A DNA stretch of 64,000 nucleotides. It comes from a virus. A program made the translations under genes and the position numbers. This document shows, piece by piece, positions 2,031 to 51,058 of the stretch. Below the pieces are notes generated by a model. The model saw only the letters and a list, made by a program, of their open reading frames with translations, searched no databases and was not told the DNA's origin. The stretch lies in IMG/VR virus record IMGVR_UViG_3300029928_000198. The stretch is one strand, 5' to 3'. How positions within the stretch are numbered: position 1 is the first letter of the stretch; each line of letters starts with the position of its first letter.

Positions 2031-2070
2031 TATCCTCCCGATATGCCGTCGTGCGTGTCCATGGAGGATA
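2031..2070 (-). promoter_or_regulatory. Anti-SD/SD stem with junction motif copy 1 in the loop
   Basis: mRNA UAUCCUCC-(AUGGACACGCACGACGGCAUAUCG)-GGAGGAUA: 8-bp perfect stem covering the RBS of the 2026 gene. Confidence 0.6.
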
Positions 2071-2077
2071 ACAGGTT

Positions 2078-2317
2078 TCACGCCCAGCGTCCCATGAACT
2101 TCCCATGGGTGATGCCGAACATGGGCTTCAGGTCCTCGCGCCTGATGTAGTCCTGACCGCCGGCCATCCTGTACTCGGAAACGCCGATGATGTTCTCGTT
2201 GCAGTCCAAGCAGCGTGCGCGGCGGAATTCGAAGTAGACGGAGTCCTTGACCATGGTTCTGAAGACGGAGCCGTCCTTTATGGAGTCGGAGCCGCAGAAC
2301 GGACATATGCCCGACAT
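2078..2317 (-). CDS. Zn-finger hypothetical protein
   Basis: CPFC...CLDC. Confidence 0.7.
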   Translation of the reverse strand: MSGICPFCGSDSIKDGSVFRTMVKDSVYFEFRRARCLDCNENIIGVSEYRMAGGQDYIRREDLKPMFGITHGKFMGRWA

Positions 2318-2565
2318 GATCGGCCCTCCATGATTATCCCGAATCTGTCCCTGAGGACCTGAGGGTCCTCCGCGATGGATTCGCAGATGTAGCCGTGGTA
2401 CATGTCGTTCAGCTCCGATGCGGTCAGGTCGGCGTAGTCCTCGGGGCGGTTGTACCTCTTCACCACCTCGTCGAAGAACATGCCCTTGGTGTAGCGGGCC
2501 TCTACGTACCCGATGCAGTCGTAGACGCTTCCGACCCTTCCGTCGGGGAAGCGGTATACGGTCAT
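2278..2565 (-). CDS. Hypothetical protein
   Basis: GGAGG RBS, operon-coupled. Confidence 0.65.
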   Translation of the reverse strand: MTVYRFPDGRVGSVYDCIGYVEARYTKGMFFDEVVKRYNRPEDYADLTASELNDMYHGYICESIAEDPQVLRDRFGIIMEGRSCRAYVRSAAPTP

Positions 2566-2566
2566 G

Positions 2567-2839
2567 TCAATCGAGCCTCCCGAGGTCGGACGAGCCTTCG
2601 GAGATGGTGCTGGCGAACCAGTCGATGTCCTCGGAGGTCAGTTCCGCCGTCTCCTTCGCTCCGCAGTAGGGGCAATGAGCACCAGTTCTGGATACCCTCG
2701 TATGCCTGTCGTTGTAGATCTTCCCGCATTTCATGCAGATGACTATCGGGACTCCCTTGGAATCCACGATGAAGTCGTTCCCGTCGATGGAGAAGCCCTT
2801 CCTGAGAAGGAAGTTCTTCAGCGTCTTCGTGTCGGTCAT
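2567..2839 (-). CDS. Zn-ribbon hypothetical protein
   Basis: CMKC...CPYC; GGAGG RBS. Confidence 0.75.
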   Translation of the reverse strand: MTDTKTLKNFLLRKGFSIDGNDFIVDSKGVPIVICMKCGKIYNDRHTRVSRTGAHCPYCGAKETAELTSEDIDWFASTISEGSSDLGRLD

Positions 2840-2844
2840 CTATC

Positions 2845-2887
2845 GATACCTCCTGAATCGTCAGTCGTGCGTGTCCATGGAGGTTTC
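2845..2887 (-). promoter_or_regulatory. Anti-SD/SD stem with junction motif copy 2 in the loop
   Basis: mRNA GAAACCUCC-(AUGGACACGCACGACUGACGAUUCA)-GGAGGUAUC; 8 of 9 bp pair over the RBS of the 2839 gene. Confidence 0.55.
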
Positions 2888-3331
2888 AATCAGCGTTCGG
2901 AGGCTCCGAACCTCTTCAACGGCCGGGATGCATCCCGCATGTCTGGTCCTTCTGGCGAACCAGCGTCCCGCCTCGGCCGAGGCTTCGGAGAAGACGTTCT
3001 CCGGGAAGATGCCCGCATCGCCTGAAGCTATCGGTTCTCCCGTCTCGGAGCGATGGAACGCCGCCGAAAGACCGCCTCCTTCGAGGCGGAGGAACGGACC
3101 TTCCGGTGAATCCACCCTTATCAGACCGTAAAGCCCGTCGGAGAAGGTCGCCACGAGGGAAGGGTCGCCCATCGTCGTGTAGACCGCGCCATCGCATCCC
3201 TCGTCGGGACAGGCCAGCATCATCTCGCATCTTCCGGGGAAGACGTAGGTGATGCCCACCGGGGCCATGTCGGACCTTCCGCACACGGGGCATCTGATCA
3301 GGATCTGGTCAGGAAGGTTCAGGAATGTCAT
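2861..3331 (-). CDS. Zn-finger hypothetical protein
   Basis: CPVC...C; C-terminus MDTHD is encoded by the junction motif. Confidence 0.7.
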   Translation of the reverse strand: MTFLNLPDQILIRCPVCGRSDMAPVGITYVFPGRCEMMLACPDEGCDGAVYTTMGDPSLVATFSDGLYGLIRVDSPEGPFLRLEGGGLSAAFHRSETGEPIASGDAGIFPENVFSEASAEAGRWFARRTRHAGCIPAVEEVRSLRTLIETSMDTHD

Positions 3332-3804
3332 CTGCCAAGCCTCTTTCTTTCAGCATCCATGAGCTTGAAAACGGCATCCTCGACGTATTCTGGCGTGTTA
3401 TCATTGTCCTTCAGATAGGTTCCGTCGGAATACAGGGAATAGCGATTGTCAAACATGCCTTCGCATTGGACGATAAAATTGGGACCGAAGTTCCCCTCCT
3501 CCCTCACGATGGACCATCTACCGTTGGGCGATACCCATAGGACATCGGAGTCGGGAATCTTCACGAAGACCTTTCCTCCGCAGCTTCCTCTGTATGTGTC
3601 CCCGAAGCATTTCCAGACATCGTATCTCATGCCGGCTTCGTAGATGATGTCGATGAAGTACATGTCACGGGATCTACCGCATATGGGACAGATCGGCGTA
3701 AACTCCCGTTCGTCGTCGCCTTCTAGCACGACCGCGCCCTCCGGGATCGTCCTGTTGGCGGGACGCCTGTTCTCTGATGAGGAGCGCATCCTTCCGAACA
3801 TCAT
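3328..3804 (-). CDS. Zn-finger acidic protein with basic N-terminal tag
   Basis: N-terminus MMFGRMRSSSENRRPANR; CPIC...C..C. Confidence 0.75.
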   Translation of the reverse strand: MMFGRMRSSSENRRPANRTIPEGAVVLEGDDEREFTPICPICGRSRDMYFIDIIYEAGMRYDVWKCFGDTYRGSCGGKVFVKIPDSDVLWVSPNGRWSIVREEGNFGPNFIVQCEGMFDNRYSLYSDGTYLKDNDNTPEYVEDAVFKLMDAERKRLGR

Positions 3805-4262
3805 CTTCTGGGCCTCCCTCTTCCCAGACCGAGCCTCTGGATCAGGTCCTCCAGCATCGCCTTCTTCTCATCGGGTTCGAGGCTGTCGTCGAAGAATATC
3901 TCATCGAACTTGTCGTAGCCTTTCTCGCCCGGGGCGACGACGCACTCCTCCAGACCTGTTATGAAGCCACTTTCGTGGAAGTCCCTCAGGGTCTCGTCCC
4001 CGGTATAGATCTTGAGTCCGCCCTCGTCGTACAGATCTTCCCAGTAGACGCCTCCGACGATGGGGTTATCTGGTTCCTCGTCCCCGTAATAGTCGTAGTT
4101 CTCCATGTCGTAGTCGAAATCCATGTAGTCATGGGCCTCGATGAAATCGCCGTCGGCGGTGCGGTAGAACCCGTCCCAGTCGCCCTCGTACAGATTGACG
4201 TTCAGATCGAACGGGCGCATGTTCTTGGAGGAGATGATGCGCTTCATGTTGAAGACGGTCAT
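3801..4262 (-). CDS. Very acidic protein with basic termini (possible DNA mimic)
   Basis: D/E-rich core; N-terminus KRIISSKNMRP; C-terminus RGRPRR. Confidence 0.75.
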   Translation of the reverse strand: MTVFNMKRIISSKNMRPFDLNVNLYEGDWDGFYRTADGDFIEAHDYMDFDYDMENYDYYGDEEPDNPIVGGVYWEDLYDEGGLKIYTGDETLRDFHESGFITGLEECVVAPGEKGYDKFDEIFFDDSLEPDEKKAMLEDLIQRLGLGRGRPRR

Positions 4263-4699
4263 CTGCGCATCCTCCTAGCGTTCTTGGTACGAATGACTCT
4301 GTAGGCATCGTTCTCGTAAGTGTCACCGACATCCATCTCCAGAGCGTCCTCGTAGTAGTTCACGACATCGAGTCCATAGACGTTCCAAGGCTTCTCGATC
4401 ATCTCGATCTTGTAGGACCGCTCGTCCAGAGGTACCGTCGCAACTTGGTCGATTCCGAGGTTTCCGAGCTGGTAGGCATTGCTCATGACGACGTTGTCCA
4501 CCCACCACTCCATCTCGTCTGCGTAGTAGCCGCATCTGATGAGGAGGTCCGATGGATCGAAAGCGCATGTATGGAAGCGCACCTCCGGATACTCGTTGTC
4601 CACCCATTCGTTGAATGCGTCGGTGCAGTGCTCCATGATCCAGCTCTTCAGCTGTTCCTCGTCTTCGGCGATGACCGAGCCGTTGAAAGTGTAGGTCAT
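4259..4699 (-). CDS. Acidic paralog A with C-terminal RTKN tag
   Basis: Start MTYTFNG at ATGA overlap; aligns with the 5193 gene; ends RVIRTKNARRMRR. Confidence 0.75.
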   Translation of the reverse strand: MTYTFNGSVIAEDEEQLKSWIMEHCTDAFNEWVDNEYPEVRFHTCAFDPSDLLIRCGYYADEMEWWVDNVVMSNAYQLGNLGIDQVATVPLDERSYKIEMIEKPWNVYGLDVVNYYEDALEMDVGDTYENDAYRVIRTKNARRMRR

Positions 4700-5193
4700 C
4701 TGAAAACACCTCTGAAAGGTCTCTTGTTCTTGGTACGGGTTATCCGGTACCCTTCGTTCTCTGTGGTTTCGCCAACTTCCAAAAATTTCACATTTTCGCC
4801 GTACCAGTCGTAATCCATATCCGAACCTTTGACTTCCCAAGGCTCGCAGATAGGCTCGATCCTGTAGACCCTTTCCTCAGGGGGAAGGATCTCGACGACG
4901 TCGATGCCGAGTTCCTTGAGTTCCGATGCATCGTGGATGACGATGTTCTCTATCCAGTACTCCATCTCCTCTTGGTAGGCGAACGTTCCGAGATTGCCCA
5001 GAACCTCGGCGGGATCCATATCGACGGTGTTCAGCTCGAAGTTGGCGAAGTTGTGGCTGATGTAGTCCTCGAACTGCTCCTCGCAGTTGTCCTCGATCCA
5101 GTTCCTCAGCTCGTCCATCGAGGATGCTATGACCGTTCCGTCGTAGACGAACTGGTAGTGTCCGTCCAAGTCGAATTCTTTGTCTGCAAACAT
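4696..5193 (-). CDS. Acidic paralog B with C-terminal RTKN tag
   Basis: Shares YxFxGxVIA...L..WI.. and YxIE.I.(E/K)PW.V.G with paralog A; ends RITRTKNKRPFRGVFR. Confidence 0.8.
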   Translation of the reverse strand: MFADKEFDLDGHYQFVYDGTVIASSMDELRNWIEDNCEEQFEDYISHNFANFELNTVDMDPAEVLGNLGTFAYQEEMEYWIENIVIHDASELKELGIDVVEILPPEERVYRIEPICEPWEVKGSDMDYDWYGENVKFLEVGETTENEGYRITRTKNKRPFRGVFR

Positions 5194-5222
5194 TTCCGTT
5201 ACCCTTCCTTTCTTCTAGGGCC

Positions 5223-5241
5223 GCCGTCGTGCGTGTCCATG
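5223..5241 (-). repeat. Junction motif copy 3
   Basis: GCCGTCGTGCGTGTCCATG, identical to 2045-2063; intergenic. Confidence 0.75.
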
Positions 5242-5292
5242 TCTGCTTTCTTTTCAGGTGAGCGATTCTCCGGGATCTCCCCGTTCGATGGT

Positions 5293-5871
5293 TCAACGGA
5301 GGCTCTTGCCGCGCCTTGTCTTGCGGTTCTTGGTCCTCTTGATGGCAAGCGTGGTTCCGGGGATGTTCAGGCGTTCACCTACGCGGATCGAATCTGCCAA
5401 GCCTCCATCAACGGCGTATTGCAGCTCGATATAGGGGATGTCAGTGTCCAGCCTGTTCCTGTACTCGACGGATGCAGGGTCCAGAGCGGCCTCGTCCGTC
5501 TCCAGCTCGGTGTAGATGGGGCCATAGTAGTCTCTGGCATTGTTGTAGTAGGTGTCGCCCAGATCCATCTCGTTCAACATGGCTCCCCAAGCTCTATCCT
5601 TCAGCTCTGTTCTGGGTACGCTTTCATGGACGATGCCTCCGTTGTCGTACACATCGTACTCCGCGTCGTAATTGATGTCGTGAGCGATGAGGAAGTGCTT
5701 CCCGCATCTCCTGCAAGTGTATCCGTTCTCCTCGGGTCCGTTCCAGATGTCGGTTCCGCCGCAGCGCGGACAGAACATATCGCAAATCCCTTGTCCGTAA
5801 GTGGGATTGGACCCTCTGACGGGTCCTCTGTACCACTTGGTCTGTGGTCTGATATATGGGTCGTTAATCAT
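5293..5871 (-). CDS. Zn-finger acidic protein with C-terminal RTKN tag
   Basis: Start MINDP at ATGA overlap; CPRC..CRRC; ends AIKRTKNRKTRRGKSLR. Confidence 0.75.
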   Translation of the reverse strand: MINDPYIRPQTKWYRGPVRGSNPTYGQGICDMFCPRCGGTDIWNGPEENGYTCRRCGKHFLIAHDINYDAEYDVYDNGGIVHESVPRTELKDRAWGAMLNEMDLGDTYYNNARDYYGPIYTELETDEAALDPASVEYRNRLDTDIPYIELQYAVDGGLADSIRVGERLNIPGTTLAIKRTKNRKTRRGKSLR

Positions 5872-6209
5872 GCTATCACTGCTCCAACCATAGCCGCCGC
5901 CATGAAGACGACGAATGTTATCACCAGAGAGAGAAGCCATCCGAGAACGGCCTGCCCTCCCGTGTACACATCGCCTTTTATCGCGAAGATGACGAGGGCC
6001 GCTATCGCTACGGCCAGTCCCCATGCGGGACCGATGAGCAGCGAAATCAGGGCCATCCCGCAAATCATCGCGGCGGGCATCATCCCCGACATGGCGGATT
6101 TGACCGTCATGACGAAGAGGATCAGTCCTATCACGATGGCAAGCGCACCGAACGAGCCGACGAATCCGGCCGCGAATGCGTCACTCAGCGTGAGTTCCGT
6201 TACAGTCAT
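5868..6209 (-). CDS. Small polytopic membrane protein (about 4 TM)
   Basis: Almost entirely hydrophobic; AGGAGG RBS. Confidence 0.8.
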   Translation of the reverse strand: MTVTELTLSDAFAAGFVGSFGALAIVIGLILFVMTVKSAMSGMMPAAMICGMALISLLIGPAWGLAVAIAALVIFAIKGDVYTGGQAVLGWLLSLVITFVVFMAAAMVGAVIA

Positions 6210-6226
6210 TGAAGACCTCCTTCCGT

Positions 6227-6248
6227 GCTGTCGTGCATGCGTCCATGG
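6227..6248 (-). repeat. Junction motif copy 4 (2-nt longer variant)
   Basis: GCTGTCGTGCATGCGTCCATGG, just upstream of the AGGAGG RBS of the 6209 gene. Confidence 0.6.
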
Positions 6249-6299
6249 CTGTAGCTAAACGGTTTCCTCACGGGCATGCCGCCCTTGAGCGTGAATGAG

Positions 6300-7639: not shown

Positions 7640-9111
7640 CTGCGCATCCTCCTTGCATATGAGCGGGCCAGAGTACCCTCCTGCCCCATGTCCACCTCGT
7701 CGTACACGCGCATCCCACGGAACCCCGGGTCGGAAAGGACCTGCTTGGGGGTCCTTCCGGAGAAGCGGGAAAGCTTGGCGACGACGGTTCCGACGTCCGT
7801 TTCGGTTCCGTCCACGGTGTATCTGCGGTCGTCCCACGGCCTTCCGTCGCCGTCGTAGCGTTCGGACATCCTCTTCCTGAACATCGCATCCTGCTCGGTG
7901 ACGGGTTCGTCCAGCATGGCCATGTACGTTCTGGGGACGTCCATGTTCGGGGAACCGGTATCGGACTGGTCCAAGACGACGGAGAACGTCCTGTCCCCGT
8001 TGTCCACGACCCTTCCGGAAACCAGAATGCGTCTGGCGTCGCCTATCTCGGGCGCATCGACCTCCAGAACGCCGTAGTACACGCCCTTGCGGACGGTTGC
8101 CTTCAGCGGTCTGGTCCTCCCCTCGGTCATCTCGATGATGGATGCCCCGATGGCGTCGGCCTTGCTGCTGGGGGTGAGCCTTCCGGCTATGGGTGCGGTG
8201 ACGACTTGGACCCCGTACGTCTGGGTGGAGTAGGTGTCCACGGGATCGGAAGAGATCTCCTCGACCCTCCTGCGGACGCTTGCATCCGAACGTCTGAGCC
8301 TGTCGGCGGTCACGAACTCTTCGCTCATCGGGGGCAAGTCGCCCACATAGGGTTCGTCGGCGATCTTTTTCCGAACAGGCTCCGCGTACTCCACCTCGAA
8401 CACGTAATCGGGGTGCGTGCGGCCCAGCTCCTCTAGCTTCCTCCTGACGGTCTCGGCCTCGTTCGGATCGTAATACTGGACGGTGGATTCTGATGCCCTC
8501 AGGACGGAACCCGTGTAGTACCACTTCCGGGAATCTCCGGGAATGAGGGCCACTATCTCCATGCGACGGCCTTCTGGACGGATGGGCGACCTCATCCACG
8601 GTTCGTAGAGCGGGTCGTCCATCGGGTCGTACGGATTGTCCAGCGGTTCATCGTCGCTGGGGAACGGGGGCCATTCGGGATGATTGGGAACGACTCTAGG
8701 CGCGAAGGAGCCTATGTCGGTCTGGCCGTCCATCCTTCTGGTCTTGGGTGCGCGGAAGTCGAATCCCTTCAGATCGGGACGGTACGAGCCTTCGTATTCC
8801 CTGTAATCGAATTCCTCGTAGGCGGTATCGTCGTCGTAGCGGACGTCGAAATCGTATCCGGGATTGCCCTCGGCCATGGACTGGGCTATCGCCTTCACGT
8901 GCTGGCGGTGGAAGAACGGCCAGCGGAGGGGTTCGTTACCGATGCCATTCCCGTCGAACGGACGGAAGGAATCGTCCTCCGGGGCGCGGACGTATATCTC
9001 CAGATCGCCCGTTCTGGGAAGAGGGGCCTTCACGGTCTGGTCGATGGTCTTTCCGTCGGCGCGTATGGCGTCGTTCCTGACGAAACGCCTTCTGAACGAG
9101 AATCCCTTCAT
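7636..9111 (-). CDS. Large acidic multi-module protein with basic termini
   Basis: Two related modules ending NPGYDFDVRY and HPDYVFEVEY; N-terminus FRRRFVRNDAIR; C-terminus RSYARRMRR. Confidence 0.75.
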   Translation of the reverse strand: MKGFSFRRRFVRNDAIRADGKTIDQTVKAPLPRTGDLEIYVRAPEDDSFRPFDGNGIGNEPLRWPFFHRQHVKAIAQSMAEGNPGYDFDVRYDDDTAYEEFDYREYEGSYRPDLKGFDFRAPKTRRMDGQTDIGSFAPRVVPNHPEWPPFPSDDEPLDNPYDPMDDPLYEPWMRSPIRPEGRRMEIVALIPGDSRKWYYTGSVLRASESTVQYYDPNEAETVRRKLEELGRTHPDYVFEVEYAEPVRKKIADEPYVGDLPPMSEEFVTADRLRRSDASVRRRVEEISSDPVDTYSTQTYGVQVVTAPIAGRLTPSSKADAIGASIIEMTEGRTRPLKATVRKGVYYGVLEVDAPEIGDARRILVSGRVVDNGDRTFSVVLDQSDTGSPNMDVPRTYMAMLDEPVTEQDAMFRKRMSERYDGDGRPWDDRRYTVDGTETDVGTVVAKLSRFSGRTPKQVLSDPGFRGMRVYDEVDMGQEGTLARSYARRMRR

Positions 9112-11396
9112 CGGTTCCCACCTTCATAGTCGTCCAGTCTGGGCTGGCGTCTCTTCTTGGGTAGCCTTCCCTCCTGACGCGCTATATCGTACCGGTCGAT
9201 GGTTCCCATCAGCTCGCCCATCACTGGTACGGCAATGGAGTTGCCCGACTGGTGGTAGAGCTGGGAATCGGAGATTCCTGCATCCCTTGCGCGGTCGAAG
9301 GCCCAGTCCGGGAATCCCTGAAGCCTCCAAGTCTCGCGGGGGGTGAGCTTGCGTATGCGCATCCCGTCGTCCGAGATCTTGGTTATCGAGTTGCCCGAGG
9401 TCCCCGTTGTGCAGGTGGGGGCCAGACCGTCGGGGGAATAGACGCGCTTGATGGATTCGAAGCCCTTCATCCCATCGACTGTTCCGATCTGGCGGCATCT
9501 GTCGTAGACGAAGTTGTCCGTCTTCCTTGAGCCTGCTCTGGTGGTGACGGTGTTGGCGACCTCGTCGCGCTGCTTGGGCTTGAAGCGGAACCCGTTGCCG
9601 GACTCCTCCTCCTTCCTGTTGGATTCGTCCAGACCCTTCAGGCGTGCGTCGGATAGGAAGTACTTCTCCGGGACGTCGTTCTCCAGAATGTCCCCTAGGA
9701 CGGTGTTGGAGCCTGTTCCTACGGGAAGATCGGGGCAATCGTCGCCCAGATGCGAAATCATGTAGGCGCGTTTGCGGTTCTGGGGGGTTCCGAAGTCCTT
9801 GGCGTTGAGGGTCCCCCAGCGCGATGTGTATCCGAGGGAATCCAGATAGTCCACCCATGCCCCGAAGTCCTCCGCGTTCTGCTTCGAGAACACGGCGGGG
9901 ACGTTCTCCATGATGAGCCATTCGGGAAGGGTCCCTCTTGCTCTGGCATCGTCCAGCAGCCTTTCGACCTCCCATAGGAGGGACGAACGGCTGTCGGCCC
10001 CCTTGGCCATGCCCCTCTTCTTGGGATTGGCCCCGCTGAGGTCGGTGCAGTTGTGGACGATTATGCCTGCGGCCATGAAGGACGATGAGCCTTCGACCGT
10101 CAGGTCGTAGACGTCCTCCTCGTCCCCTTCGTCCTCGAATCTGAAAGGCGTCCATATCCATCCGTCCTCGTAGAACGGGCCGACCTTGGGCCTCCCGTCC
10201 TTCCTGAACTTGACGATGTACTGGACGTCGCCGTCCGTGCGGACACCGCCCACCGTCGATATTGACGCCGGGCAATGGTGGACGTACGCTATGAGCCTGA
10301 CCAGATCGTAGGCAAGCTCCCTGCTGGACGCCATCATCGTGACGCGCCCCTTCTCCATGCGGACCCCGTCGCCGTCTATGCATCCGTCCAGCAGGGCCTC
10401 GGCCAGATCGTGCGGAAGTCCCATGTACTTCTCTGGGATGCGCTTCTTCTTCGGCTTCGTCCCGAATTGGGAACAGAAGGCCTCCAGCTCCCTGCTCGAA
10501 ATGTAGACCTCTATGGCGGAGCCGTCCTTCTTCGCGGTGAATCTGGTATCGTAGAGCTTGGCGATGTCGCCCGCTTTGCCTTTTCCGAAGTGGAGCGATA
10601 CCCCTGCCGCTCCGCGTTTCTTCTCCGTACGGCCTCCGGCGATGTAGCGTCCGATGGTCCACCAGAACGACGGGTCGGTCATGCGCTCCGACAGATCGTT
10701 CCTGTGGCATGGGCGGATGGAATCGGCCCACGTGATGTCGATGCCGCCCCATTCGGGCATCGGCTTCTCCTCGGTCACTGGGAATCCGACGTAGCAGCTG
10801 TCGGCCGCCTTCTTCGCGCTTATCCACTCGGGCTTCCCGAATGCGCCCCTGAAATCATCGCCGTCCCAGTCCAGCGACCAGCGGCGGGCATAGACCTTGT
10901 GCTCGGGGGTGCATCTGAACACCTCCCCGCATCCGGCCTTGTACGAGCAAACCTGCTTCGTCCCCGTCCTGCGGGAAAGCAGGACCTTGTGCCATCTCCC
11001 GTCGTGGGAAAGGACGAAATCCCCGACCTCGACCTCGGATATGTTGACCAGACCCTTGGATGTGAGGACGGGCGTATCGGCGGCGAAGCACGGGAAGCTG
11101 TAGGTGAGGATGTCGGATTCGGGGACGCTTTCGATCTTTGTTATGTCGCCCAGATTCGGATTGTCCCCGTAGATGGCCTCGTACGATTTCGTGGCATACT
11201 TGTCTATCTCGGACGTGGCCACCACGTCGTGGGGTATCCCCTTCTCGATGAGGGACATCCTCTGCGCCCCGATTCCGGAGAAAAGCTCCGTGACTCTGAA
11301 CGGTTTGCCGTCCTTCGAATTCTTATTTGCGACCAGTCCGCGCGTGCGGCGTCTGGCCTCGGATGCACGAAGTGCTCTGTTCTTACTGGAGAACAA
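9108..11396 (-). CDS. C5-cytosine DNA methyltransferase interrupted by an intein
   Basis: ELFSGIG (motif I), YSFP|C (motif IV), IMENV (VI), QNRKR (VIII), RKLTPRETWRLQGFP (IX), SGNSI (X). Confidence 0.93.
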   Translation of the reverse strand: MFSSKNRALRASEARRRTRGLVANKNSKDGKPFRVTELFSGIGAQRMSLIEKGIPHDVVATSEIDKYATKSYEAIYGDNPNLGDITKIESVPESDILTYSFPCFAADTPVLTSKGLVNISEVEVGDFVLSHDGRWHKVLLSRRTGTKQVCSYKAGCGEVFRCTPEHKVYARRWSLDWDGDDFRGAFGKPEWISAKKAADSCYVGFPVTEEKPMPEWGGIDITWADSIRPCHRNDLSERMTDPSFWWTIGRYIAGGRTEKKRGAAGVSLHFGKGKAGDIAKLYDTRFTAKKDGSAIEVYISSRELEAFCSQFGTKPKKKRIPEKYMGLPHDLAEALLDGCIDGDGVRMEKGRVTMMASSRELAYDLVRLIAYVHHCPASISTVGGVRTDGDVQYIVKFRKDGRPKVGPFYEDGWIWTPFRFEDEGDEEDVYDLTVEGSSSFMAAGIIVHNCTDLSGANPKKRGMAKGADSRSSLLWEVERLLDDARARGTLPEWLIMENVPAVFSKQNAEDFGAWVDYLDSLGYTSRWGTLNAKDFGTPQNRKRAYMISHLGDDCPDLPVGTGSNTVLGDILENDVPEKYFLSDARLKGLDESNRKEEESGNGFRFKPKQRDEVANTVTTRAGSRKTDNFVYDRCRQIGTVDGMKGFESIKRVYSPDGLAPTCTTGTSGNSITKISDDGMRIRKLTPRETWRLQGFPDWAFDRARDAGISDSQLYHQSGNSIAVPVMGELMGTIDRYDIARQEGRLPKKRRQPRLDDYEGGNR
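10050..11090 (-). mobile_element. Intein (347 aa) with LAGLIDADG-type homing endonuclease
   Basis: Starts CFAADTPVLT, contains LLDGCIDGDG, ends VYDLTVEG..SF.A.GIIVHN; the +1 residue is the catalytic Cys (CTDLS). Confidence 0.92.
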
Positions 11397-17600: not shown

Positions 17601-18629
17601 TCATCTCTTCCTCACGTTCCTAGACAGTATCTGCGACTCCGCTATGTTCGAATAGGCGTAGTTGCGCACGATGGCCTGTCTGGCCTGCTTCCCTCTGAGC
17701 CTCGGTATCGCCTGATCGGGAATCTCAGGCGGCGTGTCGGTGAGAATGTGTCTGTCCTCACGATATGCGTCGCGGGGATTCTTCCCCCTGACGCCATCGT
17801 AATAGCCGGACTGGCTCGGGTCCAGCTTCGTACGGACATCCGTCTCGGCGACTGTCAATTTCTCCTCCATCTCCAAGATGGAATCGAGTTCTTCGGGGGA
17901 AAGGCATCTGATGTACTCGTCATCGAGCCTTCCCTCCTCGTCCATGGGGTACGGCGTCCTCAGGATGCCTTCTCTTGAGTCGTCCACCGCCCTGAGGTGA
18001 TGGACCATCTCGTGGACCACCCCGTCGGCGGTGCATCCCGATTCGAGTGCTATGACGGGAATCTCGACCCCGTCCTGCTTGCGCCAGTAGCACCCCGTGG
18101 CTTCCCCGCCGTCCGGTATCGTATGTATCACGAACGACCCGTGACGGCTCATCTTCTCTATCTCTGAAAGCGTGAACGAGCTGGCCAGAACCTGTCTTAT
18201 GCGGTCGGCCTCCTCCTTGGGGGCAATGACCGCTATGCGCCTCTGGACCATCTGCTGCTCCTTCGGTAGGGACGATACGTCGTAGATCGACGAATCCTCG
18301 TCGTCCAGCCCCGCGATGTCGCATACGGACGGATCAATCCACCAGTCCACGATGTCGTCGGGCGTGAAGGGTCCATACCTCACCGGCACGCCTCCATGCC
18401 CCACATCCGCGTCGAAGGCCCCCACCTGCTGGAAACGCTGGGCCAATGCCCACATGGGGACGTGTCCTTCCCTGTCGTAGGGTATCGATACCTCTCCGTA
18501 GTCGGTATCGTATACCATGTACCTCATGGAATCGTAGTCCGAAAGGGGGTCCTCGGGCTTCTCGTCCCTGCTAGCGATCTTCCTCTTCCCCTTGCGGATG
18601 CCCCTCAGTTTCTCCTTCAATCCGAGCAT
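17601..18629 (-). CDS. Zincin-like metallopeptidase-domain protein
   Basis: VVHEMVHHLR (HExxH) preceded by ATGCYW...PVIAL; N-terminal basic run; ends SRNVRKR. Confidence 0.65.
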   Translation of the reverse strand: MLGLKEKLRGIRKGKRKIASRDEKPEDPLSDYDSMRYMVYDTDYGEVSIPYDREGHVPMWALAQRFQQVGAFDADVGHGGVPVRYGPFTPDDIVDWWIDPSVCDIAGLDDEDSSIYDVSSLPKEQQMVQRRIAVIAPKEEADRIRQVLASSFTLSEIEKMSRHGSFVIHTIPDGGEATGCYWRKQDGVEIPVIALESGCTADGVVHEMVHHLRAVDDSREGILRTPYPMDEEGRLDDEYIRCLSPEELDSILEMEEKLTVAETDVRTKLDPSQSGYYDGVRGKNPRDAYREDRHILTDTPPEIPDQAIPRLRGKQARQAIVRNYAYSNIAESQILSRNVRKR

Positions 18630-22337: not shown

Positions 22338-22533
22338 TGCGCCGCCTCCATCATTCCGCATCTGGGGAACCCGGGTCCGTCACCGCGTATAGCCGTCATT
22401 CGATTCTTCCTCCCGGCCATCGAGCGGTCGGGCGATGGTGAGTGATTCGCGAAATAGCATTTAACCGAGCGATTTTCGATGGGATGCGGTCAGAAGGAAC
22501 GGAGGTGTCATGCGCTGCACGAGTGCAAGGGAA

Positions 22534-22558
22534 CCAAGAAAACGCAACCCCTTAAATA
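22534..22558. promoter_or_regulatory. Conserved BRE-TATA motif, divergent copy
   Basis: CCAAGAAAACGCAACCCCTTAAATA followed by CGGAGTCC, like CTTAAATAGAGTCC in the sRNA promoters. Confidence 0.5.
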
Positions 22559-22580
22559 CGGAGTCCAGAAGGCCGCATTC

Positions 22581-25597: not shown

Positions 25598-25720
25598 TCT
25601 ACCACCTAGGTTGGTGCGCCATACCATCGGCATGGCATGGGGTAGAGTGCGCCGAGCCTTGTTAAATCGGGGATAAACCGATTTTCAGTGCAATCCATCA
25701 AACCATGATTCCCTGCAAAC

Positions 25721-25745
25721 ACAAGGAACCGAAAACTCTTATAAA
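25721..25745. promoter_or_regulatory. Conserved ACAAGGAA-BRE-TATA motif copy
   Basis: ACAAGGAACCGAAAACTCTTATAAA between divergent genes. Confidence 0.55.
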
Positions 25746-25823
25746 GGAAACATAGTCGGAAAACCATCTGGCCATCGCACAACCATTAAATAGCGTCCGG
25801 GTGAGAATCTACCGTCGATAACC

Positions 25824-29003: not shown

Positions 29004-30157
29004 AGGACCACCTCAACCGAGGACATGTCGGGCGCGAACTCCGCCTTCAGGTACGTCACGGATGTGAAGCGGCTCACGGATTCGAGCTTGGGGATGGTCA
29101 GCGTGTAGTTGCTGCATTCGACGCCCCCGTTCTCGTCCGGAGCTATCCTGATGCGCCTCATATCGCCCGACATCAGGACCCTGTAGCGGTCGGCCACGAA
29201 CCAGTCCGAGCTGATCGTGTGCTCGGAGTCCCTGCGGACGGTAACGCCGGGGCGGAAGACCTGCATGTATGCCGGCAATGACGCTTCTGGGTGGACGGCG
29301 GTCCTCCTGAACTCGGCCAGCTTCCTGCTCAGCGCGTCGATCAGACGCTCCTTCCCCTCCATCTCCTCCGCCTTGCTCTTCAACGCGGAATCCCTCTCCT
29401 CCAATGCAACGGCAAGGGACTTCCGCGATTCCTCCAGCTTCGCTTCCAGCTCCTTCTTCTCCGATTCGCCGGCCGAAGCCATGTCGGAGATCGTCCTGCC
29501 AAGCTCCGAAACCTGCTCCTCCATGCTCTTCCTGACGCCCTCCATCTCGGCGACCTTGGCTTCGGATTCCGTCAATGCCTTCCTCAGCACCTCGACCTCT
29601 TCCCTGTTGGGTTTGACGGACTTCTGGGCCAGCTTCTCCCTGAGCTTCGCTATGTCCGCATCCTTCTGGCGTATGGTGGCGTTGGCGTTGTCCAGCTTCT
29701 GCTTGTACATCGCGGCGACATTGTTCATCTCGCAGTTCATCTGCAAAAGCATCCCGCTCTTGGTCAGCGTCTCGCATAGCTCGGGGGAACACTTCATGAG
29801 GGCGTTGGCCAGCTCTATCGACGGCTTCCCGCCCTTCATGAAGATCCTCTTCAGGAACTCGAAGCGATCGGGAACCGACATCTCCAGAAAGAACTCCGCC
29901 CCGACCTTCTCTATCGGTATGGCGAAGTAGCAGTTCGATTCGATGCGCTTGTCCTTCAGGCGGACGAAGTAGGTCTCCCCGGGCTGGATGCTGACATCTG
30001 ACTGGCGGTCAACGTAGACCGTGACGCCCGAGTACGTGCTCTTCACGGAGCCGCTGCTGTCGCGGACGAAGGTGAGCGGGACGGCTGATGCCAGAGAAAC
30101 GACGGCGGGATCCCTCCTGTCGAATTCGACCTTGGGGCTTTCGGCCTTCGAGGTCAT
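29000..30157 (-). CDS. Coiled-coil protein with small beta domains at both ends
   Basis: Central E/K/L heptad region of about 150 aa. Confidence 0.75.
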   Translation of the reverse strand: MTSKAESPKVEFDRRDPAVVSLASAVPLTFVRDSSGSVKSTYSGVTVYVDRQSDVSIQPGETYFVRLKDKRIESNCYFAIPIEKVGAEFFLEMSVPDRFEFLKRIFMKGGKPSIELANALMKCSPELCETLTKSGMLLQMNCEMNNVAAMYKQKLDNANATIRQKDADIAKLREKLAQKSVKPNREEVEVLRKALTESEAKVAEMEGVRKSMEEQVSELGRTISDMASAGESEKKELEAKLEESRKSLAVALEERDSALKSKAEEMEGKERLIDALSRKLAEFRRTAVHPEASLPAYMQVFRPGVTVRRDSEHTISSDWFVADRYRVLMSGDMRRIRIAPDENGGVECSNYTLTIPKLESVSRFTSVTYLKAEFAPDMSSVEVVL

Positions 30158-30882
30158 GCAGCTGCCTCCGCCGCATCCTCGGATGTGATGGAAACGATGA
30201 ACGCATCATCGAGGATCGTCACCCTGTCGGCGACCCTGCGCATCTGGACGGCCAGCGAACGCTCGTAGGACATGATCTCGATCCTCTTTCCCAGAGCGCG
30301 GACGTACTCGATGGCCGGGATGAAGTCCCTGTCGCCCGAGATGATGACCGCCGTATCGTAGGAATCGTCCACGGCTCCGGCCATGAGCCGTGCGGCCAAG
30401 GCGACATCCACCTCCTTCTGATGCTCGGTATCGAAGATTTCCCTCAAATCCAGCCCCCAGCCGCTGTGCATCAACACATCGTGGAACGGCTTGGTGGTAT
30501 CCCGCTCTGCCGTGTATATGCGCCCGTCGAAGGCGGTGGCCTCCACCAGATGGCGTCCTGAAACGGCGACGTTCTTCAGCTCCGCGTAGTCGATGAGGAA
30601 TCCGCGCCTGCGGACCTCTTCGAGAACGTTGCGGACATCCAAGAACACGGAAACACGCTCCATATGCGTCCTTCCGGCCATCTCCAGCTCGGCCTTCAGG
30701 GACTCGTTCTCCTCGCGGAGCCTCACGATCTCCTCGGATTCCCCTCCGTCCAGAAACGTTCCGACGATCTCCCTCAGCGCGGCCGCTCTGGACGAGAACC
30801 TTCCGCTCCTGACCATCTCATCTATGGCTTGGGACTGGGCGGAGGTTATGCCGCTCGAAAGGATGCTGGTGCTCTGGTCCAT
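30154..30882 (-). CDS. RHH-coiled coil-NYN (LabA/DUF88, PIN-fold) fusion
   Basis: Start MDQSTS after GGAGG; AIDEMVRSGRFSSRAAALREIV (RHH); VFLDVRN...QKEVDVALA..L...YDTAVIISGDRDFIPAI (NYN). Confidence 0.85.
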   Translation of the reverse strand: MDQSTSILSSGITSAQSQAIDEMVRSGRFSSRAAALREIVGTFLDGGESEEIVRLREENESLKAELEMAGRTHMERVSVFLDVRNVLEEVRRRGFLIDYAELKNVAVSGRHLVEATAFDGRIYTAERDTTKPFHDVLMHSGWGLDLREIFDTEHQKEVDVALAARLMAGAVDDSYDTAVIISGDRDFIPAIEYVRALGKRIEIMSYERSLAVQMRRVADRVTILDDAFIVSITSEDAAEAAA

Positions 30883-31106
30883 GCTCGGTCCTCCGACGGC
30901 GCGTCGGAATCTGGCAATGTGATCCTGATGTCCACATCGTCGCCCTCCTTCAGATCCATCTTCGCCAAGTACTGTCCGGGAACCGTCACATAATACGACG
31001 ATCCGTTCTTGCGGATGGTACCGGGGAACTGTATCCTCGTGCGCAAGCACTCACCTCCGTTGATCTCGGCGTTATCCGCCGATTTCTCGCTTCTTTCGTT
31101 CTTCAT
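30846..31106 (-). CDS. AbrB/MazE/SpoVT-type DNA-binding protein
   Basis: IRKNGSSYYVTVP...KMDLKEGDDVDI. Confidence 0.8.
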   Translation of the reverse strand: MKNERSEKSADNAEINGGECLRTRIQFPGTIRKNGSSYYVTVPGQYLAKMDLKEGDDVDIRITLPDSDAPSEDRAWTRAPASFRAA

Positions 31107-31594
31107 CTGTGTGCCTCCCATTTTGGGATATGTGGTGTTCAGACCCGATGGGTCAGACGAAGAACGTACATCCTAATATTTAACGAATACCAAAATTCAA
31201 CTTTAGTTGAATAGTATTGAATCGTTCAAAGATTCAACAAACTGGGATTTTTATACGTTCCTAAAGATAGTCAAAAGCCCTGCCAGATTGCTGTGTGAAT
31301 GTGGTGTTCGTCGAATCTGGCGGGGTTCCGGTCAACAGAGGACCTTATCGACCCAAGGGCATCTGTCGCCTATGCTGAAGAACGCCACCGGGTCGGATTC
31401 CACCGACAGCACGGAGCCGTCGCACATGGAAAGGGAAAGACAATGCTCCGAAAGTGTAAGGCCCATGACGGAATCCATGCGATACGAGCGATCGCCGCAA
31501 TGGATCCTGTTACCGACTATTGCCGCTTTCTGCATGATTGTACAGTTTGGTGCGGTTTTATAAATGTTTTCCTATAAAGGACAATTTATCACAA

Positions 31595-31742: not shown

Positions 31743-31796
31743 GACCGCGCGGCCATTCAATAAGGGACGACCGCGCGGAATGACAAACATCGTCCC
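31743..31796 (-). ncRNA. Candidate small RNA B (about 35-55 nt)
   Basis: Starts GGGACGA 23 nt after TATA at 31819-26 and pairs with UCGUCCC; two CCGCGCGG palindromes give an alternative fold. Confidence 0.45.
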
Positions 31797-31836
31797 GATT
31801 TACAATCGGGCATCGGATTATTTAAGGATTCTATCA

Positions 31837-31968
31837 AAATTGTGATTCGTGGCCGGACAGCGTCCCATCCTCGTGATGCCGGCCACTGCGATCCGCGATT
31901 GGACAAGAAGGTGCTGCGCACGCACGACAGGTGGTCCAATGCGCAGCGTGTGTCCATGGACACGGACC
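31837..31968 (-). ncRNA. Candidate small RNA A (about 130 nt), pseudoknot-capable, complementary to the junction motif
   Basis: 5' end about 24 nt after TATA at 31992-99; GUGUCCAUGGACAC palindrome; crossing stems GCUGCGCA/UGCGCAGC and AUUGGAC/GUCCAAU; GUGGCCGG/CCGGCCAC hairpin then UUUU. Confidence 0.6.
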
Positions 31969-31985: not shown

Positions 31986-32011
31986 GGACTCTATTTAAGC
32001 ACCATGGCGAT
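31986..32011 (-). promoter_or_regulatory. sRNA promoter, direct repeat copy 2
   Basis: GGACTCTATTTAAGCACCATGGCGAT. Confidence 0.65.
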
Positions 32012-33424: not shown

Positions 33425-33452
33425 GCAAGGAATAGTTGAGCTTAAATATCGA
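33425..33452. promoter_or_regulatory. Variant of the CAAGGAAT-TATA motif
   Basis: GCAAGGAATAGTTGAGCTTAAATATCGA (spacer 1 nt shorter). Confidence 0.4.
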
Positions 33453-38150: not shown

Positions 38151-38180
38151 TACAAGGAATCGAAACCGCTTAAATATCGA
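38151..38180. promoter_or_regulatory. Conserved ACAAGGAA-BRE-TATA motif copy
   Basis: TACAAGGAATCGAAACCGCTTAAATATCGA. Confidence 0.65.
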
Positions 38181-50813: not shown

Positions 50814-50980
50814 TTTCTTTCCTCCGAATCGGGGCGGCGGAGCCTGATTCGGAGATTCGATTGGACTCCGCACCCCGTTCATCCGCCGATGATAGGTGGG
50901 CGGACGGTCGGGTAAATCGCATCAGGAACGACTTAATGGGGTCAAAATCTTGGAATCCGCCTGATATTCGGAAGAGGAAC

Positions 50981-51005
50981 ACAAGGAATCGAAATCCTTT
51001 AAATA
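50981..51005. promoter_or_regulatory. Conserved ACAAGGAA-BRE-TATA motif copy
   Basis: ACAAGGAATCGAAATCCTTTAAATA, upstream of the Panacea-like gene. Confidence 0.65.
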
Positions 51006-51058
51006 ATCCAAGACCGCCGATGCGACTGGTATTTGATGCGACAGCCGTTCGTGCGGCC

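Follow-up and report, generated by a model that had tools for sequence, protein, structure and literature searches.

To our knowledge, few archaeal small RNAs (sRNAs) have known targets, and none is known for mobile elements of gut methanogen-type archaea. Among chromosomal examples, sRNA41 of Methanosarcina mazei has been proposed to mask several ribosome-binding sites (RBSs) within polycistronic mRNAs (Buddeweg et al. 2018, summarised in PMC5867862). Here, we analyse a stretch of 64,000 nucleotides (nt) from IMG/VR virus record IMGVR_UViG_3300029928_000198 (hereafter the window, to which all coordinates refer unless another contig is named), which belongs to a putative archaeal mobile element. 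A two-block motif stands upstream of the RBS at four gene junctions of this element, and a structured RNA, named RNA A, carries stretches complementary to both blocks. We tentatively favour the reading that the motif is a docking site of RNA A, which would control the genes of the downstream blocks.

sRNA41 resembles this arrangement in being an archaeal trans-acting sRNA with several proposed near-identical RBS-proximal sites in polycistronic mRNAs, and its masking of several RBSs gives the proposed role of RNA A an archaeal precedent (PMC5867862). In contrast, sRNA41 is chromosomal and masks the RBS itself (PMC5867862), whereas here a single mobile element is involved, the site lies upstream of the Shine-Dalgarno (SD) sequence, the match has two parts, and the system is known from sequence alone. 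What appears to be new is that a single archaeal mobile element carries both an sRNA and its target in multiple copies, together with the two-block match and the predicted pseudoknot family.

Other comparisons come from bacteria and their phages. GcvB of enterobacteria reportedly uses a G/U-rich seed to recognise a C/A-rich element in or upstream of the RBS of many mRNAs. The likeness lies in the single-stranded seed and in the short RBS-proximal element common to many mRNAs; GcvB differs in being bacterial, Hfq-dependent and chromosomal, with targets on separate transcripts, and we know of no equivalent chaperone requirement in archaea of the present kind. The c4 antisense RNA of phages P1 and P7 is said to pair, through two short loop segments, with two sites near the RBS of its own operon. 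It is likewise a structured RNA encoded by a mobile element, with two segments set against two matching sites near an RBS. However, c4 arises by processing of the very transcript it represses and acts on a single target region, whereas here four to five targets are dispersed and the RNA gene, with a TATA box of its own, stands at a distance of 26 kb. A further parallel is with synthetic riboregulators of the toehold and loop-targeted kinds, and with natural activation by an anti-antisense mechanism, as of rpoS by DsrA: at motif copies 1-3, the RBS or AUG is paired to an upstream arm, and the candidate trigger site extends from the loop into the final 2-3 nt of this arm. The difference is that the trigger site is located in the loop rather than in a 5' single-stranded toehold, and that the stems are short and not general, with only one covarying.

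A two-block motif at the junctions between gene blocks

The exact 15-mer ATGGACACGCACGAC occurs three times in the window (2048-2062, 2864-2878 and 5226-5240), and an indel variant, CATGGACGCATGCACGAC, once (6230-6247). All copies are on the minus strand, which is the coding strand, and are read here in mRNA sense (Table 1). By our own estimate, the chance expectation for any 15-mer to occur at least three times in 64 kb is ~4e-5. The motif is built from block 1, (AU)GGAC, and block 2, GCACGAC, spaced by 2-4 nt, the constant core being GGAC plus GCACGAC. A scan for further copies, suggested by an earlier note on this DNA, was run on the window with the degenerate pattern GGRC N2-4 GCACGRC and returned just the four sites, against ~0.9 expected. 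Partial matches at 17940, 54428, 46832, 63090 and 26558 were intragenic and chance-like, and were discarded.

The earlier note had placed the motif at four gene junctions, each time just upstream of the RBS of the following gene, and three exact copies and the variant are indeed located there. For all four copies in the window, an SD-like sequence is found 9-17 nt downstream and a start codon 20-32 nt downstream. The four copies mark the sole gaps between four gene blocks, within which genes overlap by ATGA-type junctions. Two of the copies call for a correction to the description in the note. Copy 2 lies inside the 3' end of open reading frame (ORF) 2861-3331 (protein end ...SMDTHD*), and ORF 1748-2026 has an in-frame extension that starts at the AUG of copy 1.

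Table 1 Positions of the junction motifs, the hairpins around them and the parts of RNA A in the window.
Feature	Position	Strand	Description
Motif copy 1	2048-2064	-	CCAUGGACACGCACGAC; 21 nt upstream of start 2026-2024 of a 92-aa gene; AUG in frame with the gene
Motif copy 2	2864-2880	-	Within the last codons (SMDTHD*) of ORF 2861-3331; 24 nt upstream of start 2839-2837 of a 90-aa zinc-ribbon gene
Motif copy 3	5226-5241	-	32 nt upstream of start 5193-5191 of a 165-aa gene heading five overlapping genes
Motif copy 4	6230-6248	-	Variant CCAUGGAC-GCAU-GCACGAC-A; 20 nt upstream of start 6209-6207 of a 113-aa membrane-protein gene
Copy-1 hairpin	2031-2070	-	5' arm UAUCCUCC (2063-2070) with SD arm GGAGGAUA (2031-2038); 24-nt loop with motif; z = 0.17
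Copy-2 hairpin	2845-2887	-	GAAACCUCC (2879-2887) with GGAGGUAUC (2845-2853), 8/9 bp; 25-nt loop; z = -3.1
Copy-3 hairpin	5186-5246	-	GCAGACAU (5239-5246) with AUGUUUGC (5186-5193, start codon included); motif in loop; z = -0.76
RNA A core	31912-31968	-	Candidate trans partner, ~57 nt; fold and covariation; 26 kb from the motif copies
RNA A helix H1	31968-31964 with 31937-31933	-	GGUCC with GGACC
RNA A palindrome	31963-31950	-	GUGUCCAUGGACAC
RNA A helix H3	31947-31940 with 31920-31913	-	GCUGCGCA with UGCGCAGC
RNA A invariant loop	31929-31921	-	UGUCGUGCG
CTTAAATA box	31992-31999	-	23 nt upstream of the first RNA A helix; kept in L016 and L024

The motif is conserved beyond the window. All 63 nt of the four copies are the same in a Hadza-derived relative (88% DNA identity over 5 kb), while flanking intergenic positions differ. 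In the distant element CAVDBZ010000001.1 (L031), whose neighbouring proteins are 54-64% identical to those of the window, the motif is found at five junctions of the homologous distal operon, reading in mRNA sense GGACACGCACGAC, GGACGGGCACGAC, CCATGGACACGCACGAC, CATGGACATGCACGAC and CATGGGCACGCACGGC; one of these copies lies within the end of a methyltransferase gene. The motif is absent at four gaps farther upstream in the same operon of CAVDBZ010000001.1. All sites, four in the window and five in this distant element, are on the sense strand and upstream of the SD sequence, so that a conserved site with complementarity to RNA A (see below) is present near each of these RBSs.

The coding status of the motif differs from copy to copy. 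Copy 2 encodes the C-terminus of the upstream protein, copy 1 an in-frame extension of the downstream one, and copies 3 and 4 are non-coding or part of a short upstream ORF. Moreover, in some near-identical contigs, a CGA-to-TGA change shortens the upstream gene by 12 codons; although no longer coding there, copy 2 and its arm are unchanged. All four substitutions observed in the motif are non-synonymous in the AUG frame. We therefore rejected an explanation by a conserved MDTHD peptide, since frames and coding status vary between copies and every substitution alters the peptide; selection acts on the nucleotides of the motif. Overall, these comparisons support the motif as a real, selected and strand-specific element adjoining RBSs.

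Some features of the junctions stand beside this pattern. The AUG of the motif (2060-2062, 2876-2878 and the L031 junctions) is in frame with the downstream start at five of the seven AUG-bearing junctions (p ~0.045), and at three junction types the frame from this AUG is open, making MDTHD-type N-terminal extensions possible. The more distant lineage L032 has a 12-mer of its own, CGAACTCGACCG, at two junctions (L032:3799-3810 and L032:9159-9170), and another lineage, at L028:2809-2821, reads CACGAACGAC where the window reads CACGCACGAC. Junction motifs may differ by lineage.

RNA A and its complementarity to the motif

Read along the minus strand, RNA A is composed of GGUCC GUGUCCAUGGACAC AC GCUGCGCA UU GGACC ACC UGUCGUGCG UGCGCAGC. 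Crossing of helices H1 and H3 makes this an H-type pseudoknot, whose first loop contains the palindromic hairpin. Homologues occur in two more lineages, L016/L017 (neighbour protein 66% identical) and L024 (NYN protein 64% identical). Among lineages, H1 changes from GGUCC/GGACC to AAUCC/GGAUU, and H3 from GCUGCGCA/UGCGCAGC to GCUGCGUU/AACGCAGC and to GCGGCGCG/CGCGUCGC. In a hand alignment of three sequences, one per lineage, H1 and H3 together show five pairs with double-sided changes and 0 broken pairs out of 18; MAFFT shifted H1 of the distant RNA A, and the counts are those of the hand alignment. The palindrome GUGUCCAUGGACAC and the loop UGUCGUGCG are, among other stretches, invariant across the RNA A lineages. 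RNA A is hence a structured RNA with a conserved unpaired seed.

G-U pairs are present in H3 of L024 and in a 3' hairpin of L016, and would read A-C on the opposite strand. Since these pairs exist in the minus sense only, RNA A is a minus-sense RNA. The CTTAAATA box is found upstream in all three lineages, and a T-run follows RNA A in the window lineage only. No Rfam family matches anywhere in the window at gathering score, and at E-values up to 10 the junction and RNA A regions give chance-level matches alone. We also considered a small protein gene at this place; it was rejected because the reading frame is not kept in L024. As predicted from its covarying helices, RNA A is a new pseudoknot RNA family.

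RNA B (31745-31800; GGGACGAUGUUUGUCA...CGCGCG...GUCCC) is conserved in four lineages, including homologues in L016, L024 and L026, the last of which has five tandem CCATTATATAGCGCGCA boxes and lacks an RNA A homologue. All lineages seen share the gene order RNA array, 67-aa protein, AbrB/MazE-like protein and RHH-plus-NYN nuclease (30154-31535 in the window), with an inserted HEPN/nucleotidyltransferase pair beside the RNA array in L017.

Two segments of RNA A match the motif. The 5' half of the palindrome, GUGUCCAUGG, is complementary to CCAUGGACAC, that is block 1, and the loop UGUCGUGCG is complementary to CGCACGACA, that is block 2. Copies 1 and 2 have matches of 11 and 10 nt; counting the next bases, the remaining copies have 9-12 bp. 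The suggestion of the earlier note that a trans factor could act on the motif has thereby gained a plausible candidate, with a fold backed by covariation and invariant stretches facing both blocks. Taken singly, 10-mer matches of RNA A to the window are as frequent as expected by chance. However, for an 11-mer and a 10-mer from one 120-nt stretch to fall on the same 17-nt motif, we estimate a window-corrected chance of ~1e-4. By duplex energy of the loop seed, three of the junctions rank 2nd, 3rd and 6th among 21,324 windows. Duplex folding of the whole RNA against the window was uninformative, as it returned long spurious GC-rich duplexes.

The substitutions within the motif can be read against this pairing. 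Three of the four block substitutions are A-to-G on the mRNA strand (both blocks of L031 junction 5, and L029), and pairing would persist as G-U. The spacer substitution at L031 junction 4 is C-to-U, and here too pairing would persist as G-U.

A possible mode of action

If the motif is a docking site of RNA A, the two sequences suggest how it could work. The motif, (CC)AUGGAC plus GCACGAC(A), would act in cis, as RNA, within the leaders between the cistrons of a long operon on the minus strand, and RNA A would be a pseudoknotted small RNA transcribed from the same ~86-kb archaeal-type mobile element. The single-stranded loop of RNA A, UGUCGUGCG(UG), would pair with block 2, and the 5' half of its palindromic hairpin, (C)GUGUCCAUGG, could pair with block 1. 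The resulting duplex, 2-17 nt upstream of the SD sequence, would set how readily ribosomes initiate on the gene that heads each translationally coupled block. In the presence of a hairpin (copies 1-3), pairing with block 1 would reach 2-3 bp into the stem, so that opening would be favoured; at junctions without a hairpin, pairing would more likely occlude the RBS. The sequences show the motif, its conservation, the fold of RNA A and the complementarity; we infer that RNA A is expressed and pairs with the motif in vivo, and the sign of its effect is likewise a prediction.

Several observations weigh against docking. On duplex energy alone, several unrelated GC-rich sites match the junctions. 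The substitution in L015 is C-to-A, turning GGAC into GGAA, and breaks pairing with the first segment of RNA A. No covariation between seed and target is seen, the seed being invariant in all three RNA A lineages compared; L028 and L032, which have altered junction blocks, stand outside this comparison. In addition, the complementary segments stand in RNA A in the reverse of the order expected for a contiguous antisense and overlap by four bases on the target. Simultaneous pairing of both segments would therefore need an unusual topology, or else the segments are alternatives. The expected direction of regulation also differs between junctions with and without hairpins. Finally, the first segment is half of a palindrome, and RNA A hence also carries a sense copy of block 1, which a shared protein site would explain equally well.

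Alternative explanations

This last point leads to the possibility that the motif is the recognition site, as DNA operator or as RNA, of a sequence-specific protein that also binds the palindrome GTGTCCATGGACAC at the start of the RNA A gene, the similarity between RNA A and motif then being that of a shared site. The palindrome contains block 1 in sense orientation and stays invariant while neighbouring helices covary, which suits sequence-specific recognition, and an AbrB/MazE-type DNA-binding protein and an RHH-NYN protein are encoded beside the RNA array in every lineage. Block 2, however, occurs at the RNA A locus solely as its reverse complement, in the invariant loop, a coincidence of ~1e-3 under this explanation. 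Every copy is also oriented with transcription, and the A-to-G changes in the two blocks leave pairing unaffected, which is less evident for a protein site. We consider a protein site unlikely, albeit one to be kept in mind.

The motif could instead be a shared processing site, as the earlier note also suggested, at which a nuclease of the host or of the element, the NYN protein being a candidate, would divide the polycistron into mRNAs of block size, possibly under the guidance of RNA A. Such cuts would account for the presence of the motif at every boundary of translationally coupled blocks and for the synteny of the NYN-domain nuclease gene with the RNA array, and a two-segment match would suit the positioning of a substrate. 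Set against this, no known ribozyme or processing motif was detected in the junction or RNA A regions, and the order of the segments is unlike that of known two-arm guide RNAs. Processing is also compatible with docking of RNA A and does not exclude it. As an explanation of the motif, we regard it as rather improbable. We attach still less weight to a specific form of it, in which RNA A would be a guide rather than a simple antisense regulator: it would dock on the motif in an unusual, permuted two-helix geometry, and the syntenic RHH-NYN nuclease, so directed, would cleave or remodel the polycistronic mRNA at specific sites. If true, this would amount to an RNA-guided mRNA-processing system on an archaeal mobile element.

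The earlier note had proposed a toehold-like switch, in which the motif is the loop of an RBS-sequestering hairpin to be opened by a trigger. The 8-bp stem at copy 1 and the 8-of-9-bp stem at copy 2, with loops of 24-25 nt, were both found as it had described them. It had described stems at these two copies only; copy 3 also lies in a hairpin loop, closed by a helix that includes the start codon. Neither copy 4 (z = 0.35) nor L031 junction 5 has an RBS-hiding stem. Compared with shuffled sequences, only copy 2 folds better than expected, both in the window and in the Hadza relative (z = -2.6).

Related elements bear on the stems unevenly. The Hadza relative keeps 5 of the 8 bp of the copy-1 stem, and no compensatory change makes up for the loss; the homologous junction of CAVDBZ010000001.1 has no anti-SD arm, the motif being 2-3 nt from the SD sequence. 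The arms at copy 2 are unchanged in all relatives and therefore leave no variation with which to test covariation. In the copy-3-type helix of L031, CCGAACAU/AUGUUUGG, a G-C pair has become C-G and two further pairs have changed on one side while staying compatible; a second helix lengthens the stem there. Covariation, which the earlier note had put forward as a check, thus speaks for the stem at copy 3 but not for that at copy 1, and is silent at copy 2. At the other CAVDBZ010000001.1 junctions, arms pair with the SD sequence or early codons, with z-scores that are not significant; at one L031 junction, an anti-SD arm abuts the motif.

The pairing probability of the SD-AUG region places the four junction genes at ranks 3, 10, 21 and 57 among 79 candidate starts in the window. 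RBS sequestration is therefore not a distinguishing property of the motif, and a toehold-like switch at every copy is improbable. What stands of the proposal are the stems at copies 1-3, the compensatory swap in the copy-3 type and a plausible trans factor in RNA A; the generality of the stem does not. We conclude that local hairpins may modulate some junctions and that the common element is the motif itself.

A boundary repeat left by block duplication or cassette shuffling, or a recombination site, with no regulatory role in either case, is a very improbable explanation of the motif. The gene content of the blocks does vary between lineages, and a tyrosine recombinase gene follows the distal array in L031 (CAVDBZ010000001.1; L031:18053-19597) and in L032 (L032:12775-13272). 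However, the observed indels do not map to the motif, which has no inverted-repeat architecture, and the window lineage has no recombinase or integrase at the end of the array, so that the features of an integron-like attC site are absent. Perfect conservation beside changed flanks, and the match to RNA A, would also be left unexplained.

Equally hard to sustain is a role of the motif as part of internal promoters, between TATA box and transcription start, because a sequence resembling a transcription factor B recognition element and TATA box ~23-30 nt upstream of a predicted start is found at the copy-4-type junction only (GGAAACCGTTTAGCTA at 6252-6267, GGAAACCGCTTAGCTA in the Hadza relative, near the element consensus GAAACCGCTTAAATA and with a start expected just after the motif), whereas the other junctions, two of them GC-rich there, have no TATA-like box at the needed distance.

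The mobile element and its relatives

We read the element as an uncharacterised archaeal virus or plasmid. Its genes lie mostly on the minus strand and encode mostly proteins of unknown family. Those recognisable in the window include an intein-bearing C5 DNA methyltransferase, Eco57I-like and ResIII-like proteins, and large surface proteins; no tRNA genes were found in the window. The C5 cytosine DNA methyltransferase (9108-11396) is interrupted by the intein, as judged from matches to Hint and intein-splicing domains.

The promoters have an archaeal look, with a recurrent CTTAAATA-type box that in several instances is part of a conserved 30-nt family. Copies of this promoter-like family, ACAAGGAATCGAAACCGCTTAAATA, are found at 1120-1149, 22533-22562, 25720-25749, 38151-38180 and 50980-51009, and also near 33441; the distance from each copy to the start of a large surface-protein gene on the minus strand is 50-190 nt. 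The 500-nt non-coding stretch past the operon contains, at 1300-1400, short repeats of the GGAATCGA(C) type, which may be iteron-like or serve as sites for a regulator.

Human-gut metagenome assemblies contain identical and near-identical contigs, the longest of 86-105 kb. Compared with L001, the window is without a 721-nt stretch (255-aa gene) after the last operon gene (window ~1451-1500), and the Hadza relative is without the 158-aa gene at 3328-3804. Searches of IMG/VR with the motif, with the palindrome and the pattern of RNA A and with two proteins returned no relative. Neither the protein atlas nor the cluster names pointed to a taxon. The 5' end of RNA A gave three chance matches in bacteria and no relative among GTDB species genomes, JGI metagenomes gave the same lineage and one chance match only, and phage and plasmid collections held no relative of the 491-aa neighbour protein.

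Implications

With no relatives in the phage, plasmid, IMG/VR and GTDB collections searched, this family points to uncharted biology. Pairing between RNA A and the motif, if true, predicts an RNA A loop reading GUCGUUCG in the lineage whose junction block reads CACGAACGAC. The element offers a small, testable putative regulon: one covariation-supported 57-nt pseudoknot RNA, and four or five near-identical target sites ahead of blocks of unknown cargo genes. If docking of RNA A at the motif is confirmed, archaeal viruses or plasmids would be shown to use an sRNA of their own for the post-transcriptional timing of distal-block expression, and the system would provide a compact model of archaeal sRNA-mRNA recognition.

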